Source: Escherichia coli (GTDB lineage Bacteria; Pseudomonadota; Gammaproteobacteria; Enterobacterales; Enterobacteriaceae). From it: DNA of 64,000 nt. The notes beneath the pieces are model-generated. The model ran no database searches and was not told where the DNA came from. It saw only the letters and a program-made list of their open reading frames with translations. A program made the position numbers and the translations under genes. The stretch lies in assembly GCF_003018115.1 (NCBI RefSeq), contig NZ_CP027457.1; one strand, written 5' to 3'. Positions 9,815 through 54,361 of this stretch are shown piece after piece. Position 1 is the stretch's first letter, and every line of letters begins with the position of its first letter.

Positions 9815-11677
9815 TCACGACAGCTCAGGAGGGTTATTCCTGATGTCATCTTCACAAATAATGGTTAACGCATCATATATCATTCTGCGTCTGTTCCTGT
9901 TTTCGGCCTTATCGCCATACAACATCATCACATTTTTAATTTCATCGACCGGTGATTTCACATAGTGAACTAATACACCAAGCTTCTCAACACATTGCAG
10001 TAAAGTATATTTCTTACTGCCTGTGAAAAGCCCTATCATAGTTTCTTTACGTTCGCGACTGGATAATACTTTGTTTTCCATAATGACTTCAGCCAGCGTC
10101 TTACCATCATAAACATACTCTTTATCTATCAGAATATTTATCTTATCCAGCACCTTCTCTACGTCATCAAGCAAACCTGTAATATATGGGGGCGCAATAT
10201 ATGGTTTCGTACTGATCTTTTCAAGCATACAATTATACATCTTAATAACACGCATCAGGGTAAAATTGTTCGCATCATACTGTATTTCACCCTCCTTATA
10301 TACAGGTTCAATAAGTGGTATTGTTTCAATAAATGCATCCTGATAGGCTTTTACATGGTCAAGCCAATAAAACAACGAGCCATACTTTATATTTTTTCTA
10401 TTTACTTTAACCTCCAGTGCTGTCCGAAGCAACGATAATGCCCCCCTGACATATCCTGAAGGTAATTCACCAAACAATCCTTTTCTTTCCATGTCATCAT
10501 AATGCTGCAGCACATCATTAATTTTATTTTTCCTTATCAGACAAATGTACACCGCAAGTGTTTCGTAGCAGCTGGTCACATGAACAGCCTCATTCTGCAA
10601 CTGCCCAAAATAGCTTATAATCTTTTTCAGATATGCGTCATCACAACCATTCTTATCATTAATATTAAATACAAGATCTTTCAGACGGGAAATATATTCC
10701 TGAGATTTATCATCAAGTGAAACACTATAACGAGACAATGTTCCTTCTGCACTGTTTTCAAACTTATAAAACATTTCCAGTAATTTTTTTGCATAAGGCG
10801 TTGTATCAAAGCTGGTAAAGTCATAAAGATATTGCGCAGCGTAACCATACAAACCATGAATCCAGAGTCCTTCTCTCACCAACACTCTGAGATAATATGC
10901 AAGGTTTTTAAGTATCTTCGTCTTTCGTTGTATATCAAGTAAGACACTTAATGAATAAAATGCATTATAGAATTTATCAATATTCCTGAGCACTTTCTCC
11001 AGTTCATCCTTATCCAGCTTCTTCTCCCGGTAATCCTTTTTATATTCATTTTTGATAGCCATGATATATTGTTGCATCAGGCTCTTGCTTTTCCCGTTAT
11101 CCTTCCGTATAGTTCCTGTATATTTCCCCAGAGCATACAGCTTTCCATTTTCATGAAAATCTTCCTTGTTGAATCCCAGTTCAGCCAGATATTCCCGAAG
11201 ATAACGTTTAACAGCAGCTTCATCGCTTTCTGTATCAGCGTGATCAAGACAAGGGCAATACGATTTCTGTAAAAAATTATAAATATGATAATAAAAAGCA
11301 GAGTCATTCTCTGGTCTGTATGTATTATACATATCTACAACAAGAAAAATAACCCCAAAAGTGCGCAGACAATAGCTGCGAAGGAATTCAGGTTTTAGTG
11401 TGGAATGCACTGGATAAGAATTCATCATGTAATAAAAATGTTCATATCGGGCATATATGATCCGCCGTTGCTCCTGACTGAACACCCCTTCAGCATCAAT
11501 AATACGACTGATCTCATTATAACGTTGATCCCAGAATTTTTGATGCATTTCAAAATTGGTACTCTTCCGCTTGTGTGCCGGATTCTCGCCTTCCTTAAAC
11601 AACCCCAAAACAGTACAAATATCATACAACAGATTTGTAAATGTGCGCATATGCTGTGCTCTCCGGTTGGTTTGCAT
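9815..11677 (-). CDS. Hypothetical 620-aa protein, AT-rich orphan gene (alternative start at 11650 with better RBS gives 611 aa)
   Basis: Long uninterrupted ORF in otherwise AT-rich DNA; no Walker A, HUH, or other motif recognised; helix-rich K/E/Y-rich composition. Confidence 0.7.
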   Translation of the reverse strand: MQTNRRAQHMRTFTNLLYDICTVLGLFKEGENPAHKRKSTNFEMHQKFWDQRYNEISRIIDAEGVFSQEQRRIIYARYEHFYYMMNSYPVHSTLKPEFLRSYCLRTFGVIFLVVDMYNTYRPENDSAFYYHIYNFLQKSYCPCLDHADTESDEAAVKRYLREYLAELGFNKEDFHENGKLYALGKYTGTIRKDNGKSKSLMQQYIMAIKNEYKKDYREKKLDKDELEKVLRNIDKFYNAFYSLSVLLDIQRKTKILKNLAYYLRVLVREGLWIHGLYGYAAQYLYDFTSFDTTPYAKKLLEMFYKFENSAEGTLSRYSVSLDDKSQEYISRLKDLVFNINDKNGCDDAYLKKIISYFGQLQNEAVHVTSCYETLAVYICLIRKNKINDVLQHYDDMERKGLFGELPSGYVRGALSLLRTALEVKVNRKNIKYGSLFYWLDHVKAYQDAFIETIPLIEPVYKEGEIQYDANNFTLMRVIKMYNCMLEKISTKPYIAPPYITGLLDDVEKVLDKINILIDKEYVYDGKTLAEVIMENKVLSSRERKETMIGLFTGSKKYTLLQCVEKLGVLVHYVKSPVDEIKNVMMLYGDKAENRNRRRMIYDALTIICEDDIRNNPPELS

Positions 11678-11732
11678 TTTATCGCAGAGGACATTCTGAG
11701 CTTAACGTATCAAACTGACACAACGACATGCA

Positions 11733-12038
11733 ATGCATATGGAGAACAATATGTCAAATCAAACCGGACAGCTTTACACGCCTTCACGCATCCTGCGTAT
11801 GGCTGAACTTACCCGACTGCTGGGTATATCAAGATCTACTATTTACGTGAAAATAAATCCGGCCTCGAAATACCACGACCCTACCTTTCCCAAACCAATA
11901 AGGCTTGGTAGTGCATCCGTAGGCTGGCGGGCATCTGCCATCGATGAGTGGCTGATGTTACATACGGCACCAGCCTGGTCTGAACCTGAAAACAAACGAA
12001 AGGAACTTAATGATGACGACAAAACTATCACTCCCTGA
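11733..12038 (+). CDS. alpA: AlpA-family phage-type transcriptional regulator (start may be 11751)
   Basis: MAELTRLLGISRSTIY...FPKPIRLGSASVGWRASAIDEWL matches AlpA HTH pattern (RLxEVxxxTGLSRSTIYRLxxxGxFPKPxKLGxRAVGWxxSEIxxWI). Confidence 0.7.
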   Translation: MHMENNMSNQTGQLYTPSRILRMAELTRLLGISRSTIYVKINPASKYHDPTFPKPIRLGSASVGWRASAIDEWLMLHTAPAWSEPENKRKELNDDDKTITP

Positions 12039-13539
12039 ACTTGACACAACTAAACTGCCTGACAGGTGCCAGGCATTACTTGATGAAATGCATGAAGAAA
12101 CAGGAATACGCCGTGAAATACTTCTGTCTGTTATGCTGACGGTCATGGCTGCCTCGGTCCAGGATACGCATGAAGTTGAACTTTCCGGAGGGCAACGTAC
12201 CAGCCTTCAGATATTTATGTGTCTTTCATCAGCATCAGGCAGTGGAAAAACCTCTGCCTGCGCAAAATTAATCGCTCCTGTTCATGAAACAGAAGAAGAA
12301 CTACATCAGGCATATATCGACGATAAAAAAAACTATGACCGAATGATGGAAATGTGGACAACAGATAAAAAAATCCTGGAGCGGAGATATAAAAAGGAAA
12401 TTGAAAGATCCCCGGAAAATGCTGCTGCTGCACGAGCAGCACTTGAAAAGTGTATAGCAAATAAACCCGAACCTCCCGTACAACAGGTTCTCATCGTGAA
12501 TGACGCGACACCAGAAGGGATAGCTTTGAAACTCAGCCAGTCACCCTCTCTTCTGTTGCTGTCTGATGAAGGAGGTACTATTCTGGATAAGCGTTTCGAA
12601 CGCAAATCGGCACTGTACAACACATTATGGAGTGGGCAACCAGTCAACGTTGAACGGGCATCCAGACCCGGGTTCCGGCTGAATGATGTCCGTCTCACTA
12701 TACTTATACTGACTCAACCGGTAATATTTAATAAGTTTTTTACTCTCACTGGCGATCAGATCCGGGGCAATGGCTTTCTGGCCCGGTTGCTATTTTGCGA
12801 ACCCGGAGCAATTAAAATAATGACGACAGAACCGCATACTGCCACTCCTGTTGTGACGCAACAATGTGCAAGCTGTTTTCGTAAGAAAAGTTTTGGCAGT
12901 CAGATCAGAGACTCTCTGAGAGCATCCAGAGAAAGACGTGCAAAAAGTAAAGAGCGCATCTGCATGACATTATCAAATGCAGCATCCCGCGCACTGGAGC
13001 GCTTTCACAAAGAAAATATGGATACTGTCAGACAGAATCCTCATATGGGTACTTTTGAAGACATTATTGTCAGAAAAAGAGAGCAGGTTGTCAGGATAGC
13101 AGCACTTCTGGAACTGGAGAAAGATCCAGACTCGACAGTAATAACGCTGGAAAGTACTAATAGCGCCATTTATCTCATTGAATTTTATTTCAAGCATCTT
13201 ATATATAAACTTGAATCCCTTCGGGAAATATCCCCGGCTGAGAAACTTGATAAATGGCTTCAGAAAAGAATTATCACAACAGCAGGTTACATATTCCAGA
13301 AAAGTTATATTTTACAATATGCCCCATATGCTCTCAGGAAAAAATGTGTTCTGGATGAAGCACTTGACATACTGGCGGAACAAAGGAAAATAAGGATTGA
13401 TGATAACCTGGTTGTTTATATAGGAAACACGATTACACCATCCGAACTGGCAAAAAAACTAAATATTCCTGCATTCGATGCCGGAGTTTTCATTTGTGAT
13501 CATCAAAACATACTGAAGTATCACCGAAACAGACTATAG
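12010..13539 (+). CDS. P-loop NTPase-like protein in the primase/helicase-like slot of P4/CP4-57-type elements (YfjI-like)
   Basis: 509-aa ORF overlapping alpA 3' end; near-Walker-A SASGSGKTS and hhhhDEGG Walker-B-like motif. Confidence 0.5.
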   Translation: MMTTKLSLPELDTTKLPDRCQALLDEMHEETGIRREILLSVMLTVMAASVQDTHEVELSGGQRTSLQIFMCLSSASGSGKTSACAKLIAPVHETEEELHQAYIDDKKNYDRMMEMWTTDKKILERRYKKEIERSPENAAAARAALEKCIANKPEPPVQQVLIVNDATPEGIALKLSQSPSLLLLSDEGGTILDKRFERKSALYNTLWSGQPVNVERASRPGFRLNDVRLTILILTQPVIFNKFFTLTGDQIRGNGFLARLLFCEPGAIKIMTTEPHTATPVVTQQCASCFRKKSFGSQIRDSLRASRERRAKSKERICMTLSNAASRALERFHKENMDTVRQNPHMGTFEDIIVRKREQVVRIAALLELEKDPDSTVITLESTNSAIYLIEFYFKHLIYKLESLREISPAEKLDKWLQKRIITTAGYIFQKSYILQYAPYALRKKCVLDEALDILAEQRKIRIDDNLVVYIGNTITPSELAKKLNIPAFDAGVFICDHQNILKYHRNRL

Positions 13540-13708
13540 ATACTATCGGACAAAAAATAAATTATCACAAGTGTATTATTCGTTATAATAATGAATAATC
13601 GTTATCTGAGTGCAATGCCAGGTTTTCATTACGAACTGGCATTGCATTTATTTTTCAAAAAAGAAAGCAGTAACCATTTGGCTACTCTGAGTATGCCAGT
13701 CCATGAAA

Positions 13709-14926
13709 CTAAGCGAATTCCTTAGTGTTTTTAGCAAGTTGAGACATCACATAATCCGCCCATGCCTGCATCATCGGTACACGCTGCTCCAGTAGATCAG
13801 TACGATGATATGCCGCCTCAACCTTATTTTTCAGCGTATGAGCGAGCGCCCTTTCCGCCAGATCCCGCGAATACCCCTGTTCACTACACCAGTCCCTGAA
13901 TGTTGAGCGAAAACCATGTGCCGTGGCAACTCGCCCCGGTATATCACTGATGGCTTTCTTTTTACGCAGAAAACTCGTCAACACCATATCTGAAAGGATC
14001 TGCTGCTTTCTGGGAGAAGGAAACACTAGTTCATCATGCAAACCACGTATATTTTCCAGAATGTGAATGGCCTGCCGGGATAAAGGAACACGATGCTGTA
14101 TCCTGGCTTTCATTCTTTCTGCGGGTATAGTCCATATCCGCTTATGAAAATCAATTTCAGCCCAGCGCATTCCCCTGGCTTCGCCCGAGCGGGTTGCTGT
14201 AAGTATCACCATTAATAACAGTGCCCGGGTAACATTATAAGGTTCATCTGTATACACACTGGTCGCCACAAAAAGCGGTAACTGCCTCCAGGGCATTGCG
14301 GGTTGGTGTTCATCACGTCCTCTTGTCTGCTGAGGAAGCAAATGGTCAACCACATCAACAGGGTTTGCCACACAAAAACCGTGCGCCCATCCCCACTGCA
14401 TAACAACATGAATGCGCTGTTTAACCCGGCTTGCCGTTTCTGACAAGGTTAACCAGACTGGACGCAGTGTTTCTGCCACGTCCGCAGCCGTAATCGAATC
14501 CAGCGTTTTTGCTCCCAGTTGAGGAAACGCGTAATTTTCAAGCGTCGATAACCACTGCCTGACATGCTTTGGATTTTCCCATCCCGGTGACAATTCAGCA
14601 TGTACACGCCTGGCTGCATCGGCAAATGTTGGGATAACAACTTTTTCAGCTTCAGCCTTTTTAATCTCCAGTGGGTCATCACCTGCAGCAAGTTGCTCTC
14701 GCATTATCCGGGCAGCACGTGCAGCTTCAGCAATACTGACCTCAGGATAAGTTCCCAATCCAGCATTACGCCTTTTTTGTGTCACCGGACTTACATAACG
14801 AAAAACCCATTTACCCCGCCCTTTTACTGAAGAAGGATGAAGAGTCAGTCCTGTAATTCCCCCATGGGGCAATGGTTTGTCATCAGGTTTGATATGCCTT
14901 GCTTTAGTATCCGTCAATACTGCCAT
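13709..14926 (-). CDS. int: P4-type tyrosine integrase
   Basis: 405-aa ORF, N-terminus MAVLTDTKARHIKP... typical of P4-family integrases; C-terminal R...HGFRSTFRDW...Y catalytic motifs. Confidence 0.9.
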   Translation of the reverse strand: MAVLTDTKARHIKPDDKPLPHGGITGLTLHPSSVKGRGKWVFRYVSPVTQKRRNAGLGTYPEVSIAEAARAARIMREQLAAGDDPLEIKKAEAEKVVIPTFADAARRVHAELSPGWENPKHVRQWLSTLENYAFPQLGAKTLDSITAADVAETLRPVWLTLSETASRVKQRIHVVMQWGWAHGFCVANPVDVVDHLLPQQTRGRDEHQPAMPWRQLPLFVATSVYTDEPYNVTRALLLMVILTATRSGEARGMRWAEIDFHKRIWTIPAERMKARIQHRVPLSRQAIHILENIRGLHDELVFPSPRKQQILSDMVLTSFLRKKKAISDIPGRVATAHGFRSTFRDWCSEQGYSRDLAERALAHTLKNKVEAAYHRTDLLEQRVPMMQAWADYVMSQLAKNTKEFA

Positions 14927-15085
14927 ACGCTAATTCCTGTTACTCTGGTATGCCATCCAGTATGCCATTAGTCTCTCGCTTCACTAAGAATACATTAGAT
15001 AATATCGGACAGCAAAAAGTGTAATACATTGTTTATAATGAAATTATATAACACCCCCGGATTAAGTCAGATTTATTTCAGGCGG

Positions 15086-15100
15086 CCCCCCTCACCGCCA
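15086..15100 (+). other. tRNA-Ser 3'-end-like att core remnant (CCCCCCTCACCGCCA)
   Basis: 15-nt string ending in CCA matches the recalled 3' acceptor end of tRNA-Ser (serW/serX type); upstream sequence is AT-rich and not a tRNA body; ~160 bp from integrase start. Confidence 0.55.
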
Positions 15101-16459: not shown

Positions 16460-17524
16460 TTAACTGTATGCATGTAGCGTACGTTGGCAAAGTGCCGAAC
16501 GTACGCAATCCTCTTTACCGAATCGGACGATCCCGACCATTTCATCTTCTTCGAAACGTTCCAGTGCGTCACTTAATCCGGAGTGCACGCCGCGAGGTAA
16601 ATCGCATTGCGTGATATCACCGTTGACGATAACCGTCACGTTCTCCCCGAGGCGGGTTAAAAACATTTTCATTTGCGCGGCAGTCACATTCTGCGCCTCG
16701 TCAAGAATGACGACTGCATTTTCAAAGGTACGTCCACGCATATAGGCGAACGGCGCAATTTCCACCTTCCCTATTTCCGGTCGCAGGCAGTACTGCATAA
16801 AGGAAGCCCCTAAGCGCCGGACCAGCACGTCGTATACCGGGCGAAAATAGGGAGCAAACTTTTCTGCGATATCTCCAGGTAAGAAGCCAAGATCTTCATC
16901 GGCTTGCAGAACTGGACGGGTGACGATAATCCTGTCGACATCCTTATGTATCAGGGCCTCTGCCGCTTTTGCTGCGCTGATCCAGGTTTTTCCGCACCCG
17001 GCTTCGCCCGTGGCGAATATCAGCTGCTTACTCTCAATAGCCTTCAGATAGTGCAATTGCGCTTCATTTCGCGCGAGGATGGGCGAGGTATCGCGACTGT
17101 CGCGGGCCATACCAATGGCTTCTACGCCGCTCATCTGCACAAGCGAGGTGACCGATTCTTCTTCACGCTGCTTATGGCTGCGCGAATCCCGTCTCAGCAC
17201 ACGTTTTGCCTCGCGACGAGCTTTGATCACTGCTTTTTGTCTTCCCATGGAGAGCACCTTGAGTTGTTTGTATTCATCACACGCGCCGTTGGCAGCGCGA
17301 TTATGCGCACGAACATCAGAGGGTTGGCTTCCTTGTAAGCCATAGTTTGCTTTTGGATAAAATGCCGAAAAACGGCTACGCGCACCGTTTACGGCGTCGG
17401 TAACACATGAAAAGAAAGGATGAGGTTGAAAATGCAAAGTGACGAGATGACTACCGGAGGAGAAAACTCCGCGAGTGGTGGCGCGTTGATTATCTAAAAC
17501 ATGTCCAGTACAGGACGTTACCAT
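16460..17524 (-). CDS. phoH: PhoH, phosphate-starvation-inducible ATPase
   Basis: 354-aa ORF with Walker A GEAGCGKT; matches recalled K-12 PhoH. Confidence 0.9.
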   Translation of the reverse strand: MVTSCTGHVLDNQRATTRGVFSSGSHLVTLHFQPHPFFSCVTDAVNGARSRFSAFYPKANYGLQGSQPSDVRAHNRAANGACDEYKQLKVLSMGRQKAVIKARREAKRVLRRDSRSHKQREEESVTSLVQMSGVEAIGMARDSRDTSPILARNEAQLHYLKAIESKQLIFATGEAGCGKTWISAAKAAEALIHKDVDRIIVTRPVLQADEDLGFLPGDIAEKFAPYFRPVYDVLVRRLGASFMQYCLRPEIGKVEIAPFAYMRGRTFENAVVILDEAQNVTAAQMKMFLTRLGENVTVIVNGDITQCDLPRGVHSGLSDALERFEEDEMVGIVRFGKEDCVRSALCQRTLHAYS

Positions 17525-32882: not shown

Positions 32883-33619
32883 ATGAAACTTTCACTCTCA
32901 CCTCCCCCTTATGCTGATGCACCCGTAGTGGTGTTGATTTCGGGTCTTGGCGGTAGCGGCAGTTACTGGTTACCGCAACTGGCGGTGCTGGAGCAGGAGT
33001 ATCAGGTAGTCTGTTACGACCAGCGCGGCACCGGCAATAATCCCGACACACTGGCAGAAGATTACAGTATCGCCCAGATGGCAGCGGAACTGCATCAGGC
33101 GCTGGTAGCCGCAGGGATTGAGCATTACGCAGTGGTCGGCCATGCGCTCGGTGCGCTGGTGGGAATGCAGCTGGCGCTGGATTATCCCGCGTCGGTAACT
33201 GTGCTGGTCTGCGTTAACGGCTGGCTACGAATAAACGCCCATACGCGCCGCTGTTTTCAGGTTCGCGAACGATTACTGTATAGCGGTGGCGCGCAGGCAT
33301 GGGTGGAAGCGCAGCCGTTGTTCCTCTATCCCGCCGACTGGATGGCGGCCCGCGCACCTCGCCTTGAGGCAGAAGACGCGCTGACTTTAGTCACCATGCG
33401 GATCGCATCCGCTGCCCGGTGCAAATCATCTGCGCCAGTGATGATCTGCTGGTGCCATCAGCATGTTCCAGTGAACTTCATGCCGCCCTGCCCGATAGCC
33501 AGAAAATGGTGATGCGCTATGGCGGACACGCCTGCAACGTGACCGATCCCGAAACGTTTAATGCTCTGTTACTCAACGGGCTTGCCAGCCTGTTACATCA
33601 CCGTGAAGCCGCCCTGTAA
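32883..33619 (+). pseudogene. rutD: rutD (alpha/beta hydrolase) disrupted by an internal frameshift near 33380
   Basis: N-terminal part ([14 protein letters not shown]...VVGHALG...EAEDAL) is in frame 0 and the conserved C-terminal part ([26 protein letters not shown]...HHREAAL) is in frame 2, ending just before rutE. Confidence 0.7.
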
Positions 33620-33628
33620 GGAATTGCT

Positions 33629-34219
33629 ATGAACGAAGCCGTTAGCCCAGGTGCGCTTAGCACCCTGTTCACCGATGCCCGCACTCACAACGGCTGGCGG
33701 GAGACACCCGTCAGCGATGAGACGTTACGGGAGCTTTATGCCCTGATGAAATGGGGGCCGACATCAGCTAACTGTTCTCCGGCACGTATCGTGTTTATCC
33801 GCACTGCAGAAGGAAAAGAACGTCTGCGCCCGGCGCTTTCCAGCGGCAATCTGCAAAAAACCCTGACCGCGCCCGTCACCGCTATCGTCGCATGGGACAG
33901 TGAATTTTATGAACGGTTACCGCAACTGTTTCCTCACGGCGATGCCCGCAGTTGGTTTACCTCCAGCCCACAACTTGCCGAAGAAACAGCGTTTCGCAAC
34001 AGTTCCATGCAGGCGGCTTATCTTATCATCGCCTGCCGTGCGCTGGGACTGGATACCGGCCCGATGTCGGGTTTTGACCGTCAACACGTTGACGACGCCT
34101 TTTTTGCGGGCAGCACGCTGAAGAGCAATCTGCTGATTAATATCGGCTATGGCGATAGCAGCAAACTTTTTGCGCGCCTGCCACGTCTGTCCTTTGAAGA
34201 AGCCTGCGGGCTGTTGTAA
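33629..34219 (+). CDS. rutE: RutE, nitroreductase-like malonic semialdehyde reductase
   Basis: 196-aa ORF. Confidence 0.9.
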
Positions 34220-34229
34220 GGAGCAAACC

Positions 34230-34724
34230 ATGAACATTGTCGATCAACAAACCTTTCGCGATGCGATGTCCTGTATGGGCGCGGCAGTCAATATCATCAC
34301 CACGGATGGTCCAGCCGGGCGCGCCGGGTTCACCGCCAGCGCGGTCTGCAGCGTGACCGACACGCCGCCTACATTACTGGTGTGCCTGAATCGTGGGGCG
34401 TCCGTCTGGCCGGTATTCAATGAAAATCGAACGCTGTGTGTAAATACACTGAGCGCCGGGCAGGAGCCGCTTTCAAATCTTTTTGGCGGCAAAACGCCCA
34501 TGGAACACCGCTTTGCCGCCGCCCGCTGGCAGACGGGTGTGACCGGATGCCCGCAACTGGAAGAGGCTCTGGTTTCGTTTGACTGCCGTATCAGCCAGGT
34601 GGTGAGCGTCGGCACCCACGACATTCTGTTTTGCGCCATCGAAGCGATTCATCGTCACGCCACACCCTACGGGCTGGTGTGGTTCGATCGCAGTTATCAC
34701 GCGCTGATGCGCCCTGCTTGTTAA
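34230..34724 (+). CDS. rutF: RutF, flavin reductase
   Basis: 164-aa protein starting [14 protein letters not shown]. Confidence 0.9.
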
Positions 34725-34744
34725 CCTCCTTAAGGAGACAGCTG

Positions 34745-36073
34745 ATGGCAATGTTCGGTCTTCCTCACTGGCAGTTAAAATCGACCTCTACAGAGAGCGG
34801 CGTGGTCGCGCCGGATGAACGATTGCCGTTTGCTCAGACGGCAATAATGGGCGTTCAACACGCGGTGGCGATGTTTGGCGCGACGGTGTTAATGCCGATT
34901 CTGATGGGGCTGGATCCCAATCTTTCCATTTTGATGTCGGGGATCGGCACGTTACTGTTTTTCTTTATTACCGGCGGGCGCGTTCCCAGTTATCTCGGTT
35001 CCAGCGCGGCTTTTGTCGGCGTGGTGATCGCCGCAACGGGCTTTAACGGTCATGGCATTAACCCGAATATCAGCATCGCGCTGGGCGGGATTATCGCCTG
35101 TGGGCTGGTTTATACCGTCATTGGCCTGGTGGTGGTGAAAATCGGCACGCGCTGGATTGAACGTCTGATGCCGCCCGTAGTGACGGGCGCGGTGGTGATG
35201 GCGATTGGCCTGAACTTAGCGCCTATCGCAGTGAAAAGTGTATCGGCTTCGGCCTTTGATAGCTGGATGGCGGTAATGACGGTGCTGTGTATTGGGCTGG
35301 TGGCGGTGTTTACCCGTGGCATGATCCAGCGGTTATTGATTCTTGTAGGATTAATTGTCGCCTGTCTGCTGTATGGCGTGATGACCAATGTTTTAGGGCT
35401 GGGGAAAGCCGTCGATTTTACTCTCGTCAGCCATGCTGCCTGGTTCGGTCTGCCACATTTTTCCACTCCTGCTTTTAATGGTCAGGCAATGATGCTGATT
35501 GCGCCCGTGGCGGTGATTCTGGTGGCGGAAAACTTAGGTCATCTCAAGGCGGTCGCCGGGATGACCGGACGCAATATGGATCCGTATATGGGACGGGCAT
35601 TCGTCGGTGATGGGCTGGCGACGATGCTTTCTGGTTCTGTCGGTGGCAGCGGCGTAACCACCTACGCCGAGAATATCGGTGTAATGGCCGTGACAAAAGT
35701 CTACTCGACGCTGGTGTTTGTTGCTGCTGCCGTCATCGCCATGCTGTTGGGCTTTTCACCGAAATTTGGCGCGCTGATTCATACCATTCCGGCCGCGGTG
35801 ATTGGTGGTGCATCAATTGTTGTGTTCGGGCTGATTGCAGTCGCAGGCGCAAGGATATGGGTACAAAACCGTGTCGATTTAAGCCAGAACGGTAATTTGA
35901 TTATGGTCGCAGTAACCTTAGTGCTGGGCGCGGGTGATTTTGCTCTCACGCTGGGCGGTTTTACGTTGGGAGGGATCGGTACAGCCACCTTTGGCGCGAT
36001 TTTGCTCAATGCGTTGTTAAGTAGAAGGTTGGTTGACGTTCCACCGCCAGAAGTTGTTCATCAGGAGCCATAA
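34745..36073 (+). CDS. rutG: RutG, pyrimidine permease (NCS2 family)
   Basis: 442-aa membrane protein starting MAMFGLPHWQLKS. Confidence 0.9.
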   Translation: MAMFGLPHWQLKSTSTESGVVAPDERLPFAQTAIMGVQHAVAMFGATVLMPILMGLDPNLSILMSGIGTLLFFFITGGRVPSYLGSSAAFVGVVIAATGFNGHGINPNISIALGGIIACGLVYTVIGLVVVKIGTRWIERLMPPVVTGAVVMAIGLNLAPIAVKSVSASAFDSWMAVMTVLCIGLVAVFTRGMIQRLLILVGLIVACLLYGVMTNVLGLGKAVDFTLVSHAAWFGLPHFSTPAFNGQAMMLIAPVAVILVAENLGHLKAVAGMTGRNMDPYMGRAFVGDGLATMLSGSVGGSGVTTYAENIGVMAVTKVYSTLVFVAAAVIAMLLGFSPKFGALIHTIPAAVIGGASIVVFGLIAVAGARIWVQNRVDLSQNGNLIMVAVTLVLGAGDFALTLGGFTLGGIGTATFGAILLNALLSRRLVDVPPPEVVHQEP

Positions 36074-42037: not shown

Positions 42038-42168
42038 GCCGGATGTGATGACGCATCTTAGCCTGCCTGCAAAGAGTACTTTTCCTGTGGGCCGGATAAG
42101 GCGTTCACGCCGCATCCGGCGGCGGTGCCCTAATGCCTGATGCGACGCTAAACGCGTCTTATCAGGCC
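42038..42168. repeat. REP/BIME cluster between cbpM and torD
   Basis: GCCGGATAAGGCGTTCACGCCGCATCCGGC and GCCTGATGCGACGCTAAACGCGTCTTATCAGGCC. Confidence 0.6.
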
Positions 42169-54055: not shown

Positions 54056-54361
54056 ATGAAACACAAGCTTTCTGCAATCCTTATGGCCTTCATGTTGACG
54101 ACGCCAGCTGCGTTTGCTGCCCCTGAAGCAGCAAACGGGACCGAGGCAACGACGGGTACTACTGGCACCACAACGACCACTACCGGTGCAACCACGACGG
54201 CTGCTACCACTGGTGGCGTGGCTGCTGGCGCTGTCGGCACGGCGACAGTTGTCGGTGTGGCAACGGCTGTTGGTGTGGCGACGTTGGCAGTAGTTGCAGC
54301 AAATGACAGTGGCGATGGCGGTTCTCATAACACCTCAACCACCACGTCCACTACGCGCTAA
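54056..54361 (+). CDS. gfcA: GfcA (YmcD), Thr/Gly-rich small membrane protein
   Basis: 101-aa protein MKHKLSAILMAF... with long Thr-rich low-complexity tract. Confidence 0.8.
   Translation: MKHKLSAILMAFMLTTPAAFAAPEAANGTEATTGTTGTTTTTTGATTTAATTGGVAAGAVGTATVVGVATAVGVATLAVVAANDSGDGGSHNTSTTTSTTR

Follow-up and report, generated by a model that had tools for sequence, protein, structure and literature searches.

A 64-bp Deletion with End Points in a Short Direct Repeat Interrupts rutD in an Otherwise Intact rut Operon of Escherichia coli

Results

The rut Locus and Its Surroundings

The window, meaning the whole 64,000-nucleotide stretch of Escherichia coli DNA analyzed here, carries a rut locus arranged in the order putA, rutR, rutABCDEFG, and wrbA. 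The rutR gene (29768–30406, minus strand) was intact and encoded 212 aa. On the plus strand, rutA (30694–31785), rutB (31785–32477), and rutC (32489–32875) were intact, as were rutE (33629–34219), which has its own AAGGA ribosome-binding site, rutF (34230–34724), and rutG (34745–36073). Each of these genes (rutR, rutA, rutB, rutC, rutE, rutF, and rutG) had the same length as its counterpart in F9792 and was free of internal stops. The gene lying between rutC and rutE was assigned to the RutD family, and the gene order matched that of annotated relatives.

The closest complete genome, F8111-1SC3, was 99.2% identical to the window over the 24 kb compared. Across approximately 44 kb examined for indels against this genome, the deletion in rutD was the sole gene-disrupting indel in the window. 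The few other indels comprised a variable REP-like stretch between genes, an in-frame difference of one 18-bp repeat unit, two 1-bp differences that compensate for each other, and 1-bp differences at one intergenic site and in phoH. At the phoH site (window position 16645), the window has one C more than F8111-1SC3, whose phoH is annotated as 'frameshifted'; the phoH ORF of the window (16460–17524, minus strand) is open, and it is F8111-1SC3 that carries the lesion. The REP-like stretch (GCCGGATAAGGCG...GCCTGATGCGACGC) lies between cbpM and torD at 42057–42130 and includes ~55 bp that could not be aligned to the closest relative, along with several small indels. Near position 54157, the window has one 18-bp unit (TACTACTGGCACCACAAC) fewer than F8111-1SC3, an in-frame copy-number difference in a tandem repeat located inside a hypothetical-protein gene upstream of gfcB.

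The left part of the window is of a different character. Left of ~15086, there was no match to the csg-ghrA-tRNA-Ser region of the closest relative, and an ORF with a P4-type integrase domain (13709–14926, minus strand) adjoins a 15-nt remnant of the 3′ end of tRNA-Ser (CCCCCCTCACCGCCA, 15086–15100). ARAGORN found no intact tRNA in the whole window. Positions 1–15100 resemble the right-hand end of a genomic island of more than 15 kb inserted at tRNA-Ser. Its ORFs include several without an NCBIfam match, a transporter of the lactate-permease family, and an LdhH-like C-terminal fragment.

A 64-bp Deletion in rutD

The rutD gene begins with an ATG at 32883, and its frameshifted ORF (32883–33512, plus strand) consists of 167 native codons followed by 42 out-of-frame codons and a TGA, which together specify a product of 209 aa. 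Alignment with the intact rutD genes of F9792 and PapRG-04-4, whose remaining sequence has 100% identity with that of the window gene, showed that exactly 64 bp are missing from the window. The gap is a deterministic difference from the reference and not a statistical signal. In intact rutD, the 8-bp sequence ACGCGCTG occurs twice, at gene nucleotides 494–501 and 558–565, both in F9792 and in most haplotypes. The window has one copy only, at 33376–33383 (plus strand), which alignment to the intact alleles identified as the deletion junction. The extra sequence of the intact alleles at this point is a 56-bp spacer plus the second 8-bp copy. The end points of the deletion therefore fall in a direct repeat that is present twice in the intact allele, one copy has been kept, and the deleted length equals that of the spacer and one repeat (64 = 56 + 8). 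No foreign DNA was found at the junction. In seven complete genomes, rutD was 100% identical to the window gene over all 739 query bases, aligned as two pieces that span 803 bases.

The sequence lost from the window corresponds to codons A168–R187 plus 4 bases, and the reading frame shifts after L167. Translation of the shifted frame gives a tail of 42 residues (33384–33509, plus strand) that ends at the premature TGA stop at 33510–33512. In the sequence, this stop overlaps a native-frame ATG (Met232) as TGATG (33510–33514, plus strand). Severed from the start of the gene, the 3′ remnant in the native frame (33383–33619, plus strand) retains codons D189–L266 (33383–33616) and the native stop (33617–33619), and was 100% identical to the F9792 allele. 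We conclude that rutD in the window carries a real, heritable 64-bp deletion and is now a pseudogene.

An earlier, sequence-only reading of this DNA had anticipated most of this structure. It had placed a frame switch near 33380, estimated a deletion of 60–65 bp, and named approximately 20 missing residues, all of which agree with the alignment to intact rutD. The 7-mer CGCGCTG that it had proposed as the flanking direct repeat sits inside the actual 8-mer, and its view that the other rut genes were intact is borne out by their lengths and the lack of internal stops.

The Truncated RutD Product

Intact RutD aligned in full with PDB 3V48, and its match to Pfam Abhydrolase_6 covered residues 16–249. 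The product encoded in the window follows the native sequence to residue 167 only. A complete α/β-hydrolase fold of ~266 aa in one frame was not found; the last third of the fold is gone, and the C-terminal 78 residues lie in another frame. From this loss of fold, the truncated protein is probably inactive. Against TIGR03611, it nevertheless scored 267.4 bits over profile positions 1–170 of 258, above the cut-off of 238.5, compared with 408.6 bits over positions 1–257 for the intact allele. Consequently, databases name the truncated product RutD ('pyrimidine utilization protein D') without flagging it.

The gene might alternatively be split or recoded, with RutD activity restored either by programmed frameshifting or by the N-terminal fragment acting together with a reinitiated C-terminal peptide. 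The stop–start overlap at 33510–33514 and a 35-aa downstream ORF with a remaining match to the end of the RutD model would be in keeping with such an arrangement, but 21 codons are absent and residues 189–231 are out of frame, so no frameshift rebuilds the fold, and the two missing strands and helices cannot come from a peptide of 35 aa. An intact gene in one frame is also the norm: rutD keeps at least 80% coverage in 5,418 of the 5,426 complete E. coli genomes. We give a functional split gene practically no credence, and programmed frameshifting as a conserved state was ruled out, as 64 bp of coding sequence are physically missing.

A separate observation concerns residues 86–90 of RutD (window 33137–33151), which read G-H-A-L-G. 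α/β hydrolases normally carry G-x-S-x-G at the nucleophile position, with Ser as the nucleophile. Ala occupied this position in all RutD alleles seen, including the sequence of PDB 3V48, an observation that accords with the unsettled state of RutD biochemistry.

Occurrence in Public Assemblies

Public carriers of the deleted allele were found by exact-protein look-up. The exact 209-aa product was present in 136 blocks of a public assembly index and in 94 contigs drawn from NCBI, ENA, and Logan. Carriers include E. coli TA447 and KTE196, and the product is identical to ELH41955.1, ELI32867.1, and EZK24555.1. In all five of the distinct loci retrieved, the identical 44-bp junction was found together with full-length neighbouring rut genes. 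Among 5,426 complete RefSeq E. coli genomes, none matched a 44-bp junction probe; as a positive control, an equally long probe spanning the intact repeat matched 3,916 of the same genomes. That collection thus contains neither the source strain nor its siblings, and overall the allele is uncommon.

These data bear on the second half of the sequence-only reading, which had left the choice between a real inactivation and an assembly error; the former stands and the latter does not. Had the genome an intact rutD from which 64 bp were dropped during assembly or sequencing, the absence of the junction from every complete RefSeq genome would be readily understood. Against this, the same junction and product recur across independent assemblies from different projects and years, with carriers that include GCA_002110175.1, GCA_000627885.1, GCA_015674585.1, GCA_910665005.1, and Logan SRR24917758, among others. 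Moreover, neither a k-mer nor an overlap assembly would collapse a repeat as short as 8 bp, and the window shows no suspicious indels elsewhere. An artefact is accordingly very hard to credit. In its narrowest form, as an error confined to one assembly, it was ruled out by the 136 blocks and 94 contigs from several sources, and assembly error is excluded because the identical junction occurs in many independent assemblies.

Recurrence across rutD Haplotypes

The same 64-bp deletion was simulated on nine other rutD haplotypes, and the hypothetical products were looked up by exact match. Five of the nine exist in public data, and one further variant was present in a cluster listing. At the DNA level, the carrier haplotypes were those of F9792, O157:H7, 07B21, and O111:H8, a K-12-like and an ATCC 25922-like haplotype, and one divergent haplotype, which differ from each other at up to 30 of 737 positions. 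Polymorphisms that distinguish the haplotypes lie close to the repeats on both sides, with SNPs at gene nucleotides 483, 486, and 489, which precede the left repeat by 5–11 nt, and at 575 and 576, which follow the right repeat by 10 nt. Apart from the 64-bp gap, the O157-type carrier matched O157:H7 genomes at 100% identity over 5.5 kb.

The parsimonious reading of these sequences is that the deletion arose independently on at least seven rutD haplotypes, several of the occurrences resting on one to four contigs from Logan assemblies of sequencing runs. This follows because transfer across haplotypes would need repeated conversion tracts of ~25 bp. A single ancestral deletion moved to other backgrounds by homologous recombination was considered, given that recombination is clearly active at the locus. 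Specifically, carriers of the window haplotype share a nearly SNP-free core of ~3.6 kb (~31174–34759), from which the intact F9792 allele differs by one SNP, while their flanks are mosaic in rutR, rutA, and rutG. This pattern indicates that the deletion is young relative to the haplotype and that recombination has acted around rutD. However, the SNPs hug the repeats, such that ~25-bp conversion tracts would be needed at least six times, and on either side of the gap the O157 carrier shows no difference from O157:H7 genomes. As a general account, one origin is therefore very improbable. For the cross-haplotype cases, it is unlikely; within the F9792-type haplotype of the window, a single origin with recombination and a repeated origin account equally well for carriers with differing flanks.

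Other Repeat Pairs and Other rutD Lesions

Intact rutD contains only three pairs of 8-bp direct repeats that are no more than 100 bp apart. Besides the pair at the window's junction, these are the pairs at gene nucleotides 217/271 (54 bp apart) and 216/291 (75 bp apart), and deletion between either pair is in frame. When the 54- and 75-bp deletions were simulated on five haplotypes, five of the ten products were found in public data. Many more RutD alleles of 241 and 248 aa were also seen, and a 248-aa RutD is a widespread Shigella allele (119 contigs). As judged from these sequences, all three close, GC-rich 8-bp repeat pairs in rutD yield recurrent deletions. The idea that the 64-bp site is a unique hotspot was consequently rejected, since the other two close pairs are also recurrently deleted. 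The 54-bp deletion removes residues 73–90 (nucleotides 217–270) and the 75-bp deletion removes residues 73–97 (nucleotides 216–290); in both, the G-H-A-L-G 'nucleophile elbow' segment is lost (alleles P0040, P0041, and P0035–P0039).

A hairpin was examined as a possible driver of the 64-bp deletion. An imperfect inverted repeat overlaps the right ACGCGCTG copy. When the repeats and spacer were folded as single-stranded DNA, the folding energy of the two strands was no better than that of shuffled sequence (z = −0.36 and −0.17), and a hairpin-promoted hotspot is thus unsupported.

Short-repeat deletions are not confined to rutD, as seen from a 66-bp in-frame deletion in O157-type rutB between GC-rich GCCGCAGC repeats, which was present in six contigs (L028, Logan SRR2034070). 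On the deeply sampled O157 background, rutD deletions were on record for three of three repeat pairs, compared with one of four comparable deletions in rutA, rutB, and rutG. This suggestive contrast, drawn from a small control, fell short of significance (Fisher p = 0.14) and is confounded with the GC content of the repeats, as all recorded deletions occurred at GC-rich repeats. With so small a control, a mutational bias of GC-rich repeats and relaxed selection are inseparable.

Further natural lesions of rutD were noted among the genomes. In W409 (NZ_CP122499.1), an IS1 family transposase interrupts rutD, another independent natural disruption. In ChlosBP-23-1 (NZ_CP048603.1, locus L018, 1501–2364), the place of rutD and rutE is taken by one CDS of 864 bp with the annotation malonic semialdehyde reductase; only the first 343 nt of rutD are matched, which implies a putative rutD'-'rutE fusion deletion. 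In a divergent haplotype (L026/L027), the usual TAA is missing from its expected place at the end of rutD, and rutE is shifted by 1 nt. One RutD variant of 270 aa (P0004) ends in ...REAACKELL, which suggests that a 1-bp deletion at the rutD stop may extend the protein towards the rutE start.

Constraint on rutD and the Case for Adaptive Loss

Crude pairwise dN/dS values placed rutD at 0.20–0.26, the highest in the operon, compared with 0.075 for rutA, 0.095 for rutB, 0.142 for rutC, 0.130 for rutE, 0.007 for rutF, and 0.064 for rutG. Purifying selection thus acts on rutD, though less strongly than on any other gene of the operon. For the protein haplotype of the window, the deleted allele was present in 136 index blocks, compared with 693 for the intact one, and this argues against a strongly deleterious effect of the lesion.

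The rutD deletions, together with the IS1 and fusion lesions, could also be read as adaptive, convergent loss across E. coli and Shigella, in which removal of RutD is positively selected in some host-associated niches while the operon retains rutA, rutB, rutC, rutE, rutF, and rutG. The recurrence of three deletions on many backgrounds, some with ~57–119 contigs, points in this direction, as do the O157 contrast between rutD and rutA, rutB, and rutG and the sizeable share of its haplotype that the deleted allele holds. Yet that contrast is both non-significant and confounded by GC content, intact rutD haplotypes are under purifying selection (dN/dS ~0.26, below 1), the great majority of complete genomes retain the gene, as described above, and losing RutD has no known benefit (PMC8113886). 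Positive support does not extend beyond the non-significant contrast, and we regard adaptive loss as unlikely. If it were true, rutD would represent adaptive gene loss inside a retained operon, with GC-rich 8-bp repeats serving as built-in off switches.

Consequences for the Rut Pathway

The sequence-only reading had described the affected function as the aminoacrylate hydrolase step, an assignment that is outdated: RutC is the 3-aminoacrylate deaminase (Buckner et al. 2021, PMC8113886). For RutD, an acceleration of carbamate hydrolysis has only been proposed, and a plasmid-borne operon with RutD ΔV16-L250 restores growth on uridine, demonstrating that RutD is not required; the classic ΔrutD defect reflects polarity on the downstream genes (PMC8113886). 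Given that RutD is dispensable on uridine, the pathway need not stop when the enzyme is lost. In carriers, the outcome depends on the degree of polarity that the premature stop exerts on rutEFG.

The premature stop lies 116 nt from the rutE ATG (33629), and the C/G ratio of this interval was 1.2–1.6 in 78-nt windows. Gene callers predicted a 35-aa ORF running from TGATG to the native stop, 9 nt before rutE, and ORFs of 35 or 37 aa were present in the carrier loci. TGATG is a possible termination–reinitiation site. No promoter-like or terminator-like sites were found in 33300–33700, which indicates that the deletion creates no new internal signal. Based on these features of the sequence, polarity on rutEFG is expected to be mild.

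Discussion

Taken together, the data are very probably explained by a recurrent slipped-strand or short-homology deletion that inactivates rutD, a weakly constrained gene. The two ACGCGCTG copies, 64 bp apart, would misalign, and one repeat copy would be lost along with the 56-bp spacer. The resulting frameshift would truncate RutD after residue 167, removing the C-terminal third of the fold and presumably inactivating the enzyme. The same event would have recurred on at least seven haplotypes, with the two sibling repeat pairs giving rise to the 54- and 75-bp deletions. Deleted alleles may then persist and spread because rutD is weakly constrained, being dispensable on uridine in the laboratory and having the highest dN/dS in the operon. 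The rutD lesion is, in short, ordinary gene decay by a textbook mechanism.

The finding is of modest interest, chiefly for the recurrence on at least seven haplotypes, the two sibling deletion sites, and a blind spot in annotation. It leaves the current view of the Rut pathway and of deletion mechanisms unchanged. Carriers such as TA447 and KTE196, which are without RutD, constitute natural tests of the importance of this protein outside the laboratory and complement the finding that it is dispensable on uridine. Because the truncated product passes the RutD cut-off, pathway reconstructions based on annotation only would miss the lesion. Three short-repeat deletions in one gene also provide a countable case of mutational hotspots combined with weak constraint in natural E. 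coli. A literature search found no paper describing a natural rutD frameshift.

The locus can be compared with several known systems. Like K-12 RutD (PDB 3V48; TIGR03611), the gene in the window is located between rutC and rutE, and residues 1–167 and 189–266 are essentially identical; unlike it, the gene is interrupted, with only profile positions 1–170 of 258 in frame. The engineered RutD ΔV16-L250 allele resembles the natural one in combining loss of rutD function with an otherwise intact rutCDEFG context (PMC8113886). That allele, however, is in frame (non-polar) and plasmid-borne, whereas the natural one sits on the chromosome and shifts the frame, with a premature stop 116 nt before rutE, and polarity could differ between the two. 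The other natural rutD lesions (the 54- and 75-bp deletions, the IS1 insertion, and the fusion) differ from that of the window in position and mechanism, the lesion of the window being the frameshifting one.

A further parallel is found in a different gene. Spontaneous deletions between short direct repeats, whether slipped-strand or RecA-independent, are well known, the classic example being the deletion hotspots of E. coli lacI. The rutD case differs from these in that it comes from natural populations and not from a selection experiment, and in that no strongly stabilizing hairpin was found between the repeats. It resembles them in that the end points lie at a perfect 8-bp repeat of which one copy is kept, the loss consists of repeat plus spacer with no foreign DNA, and the event recurs independently.
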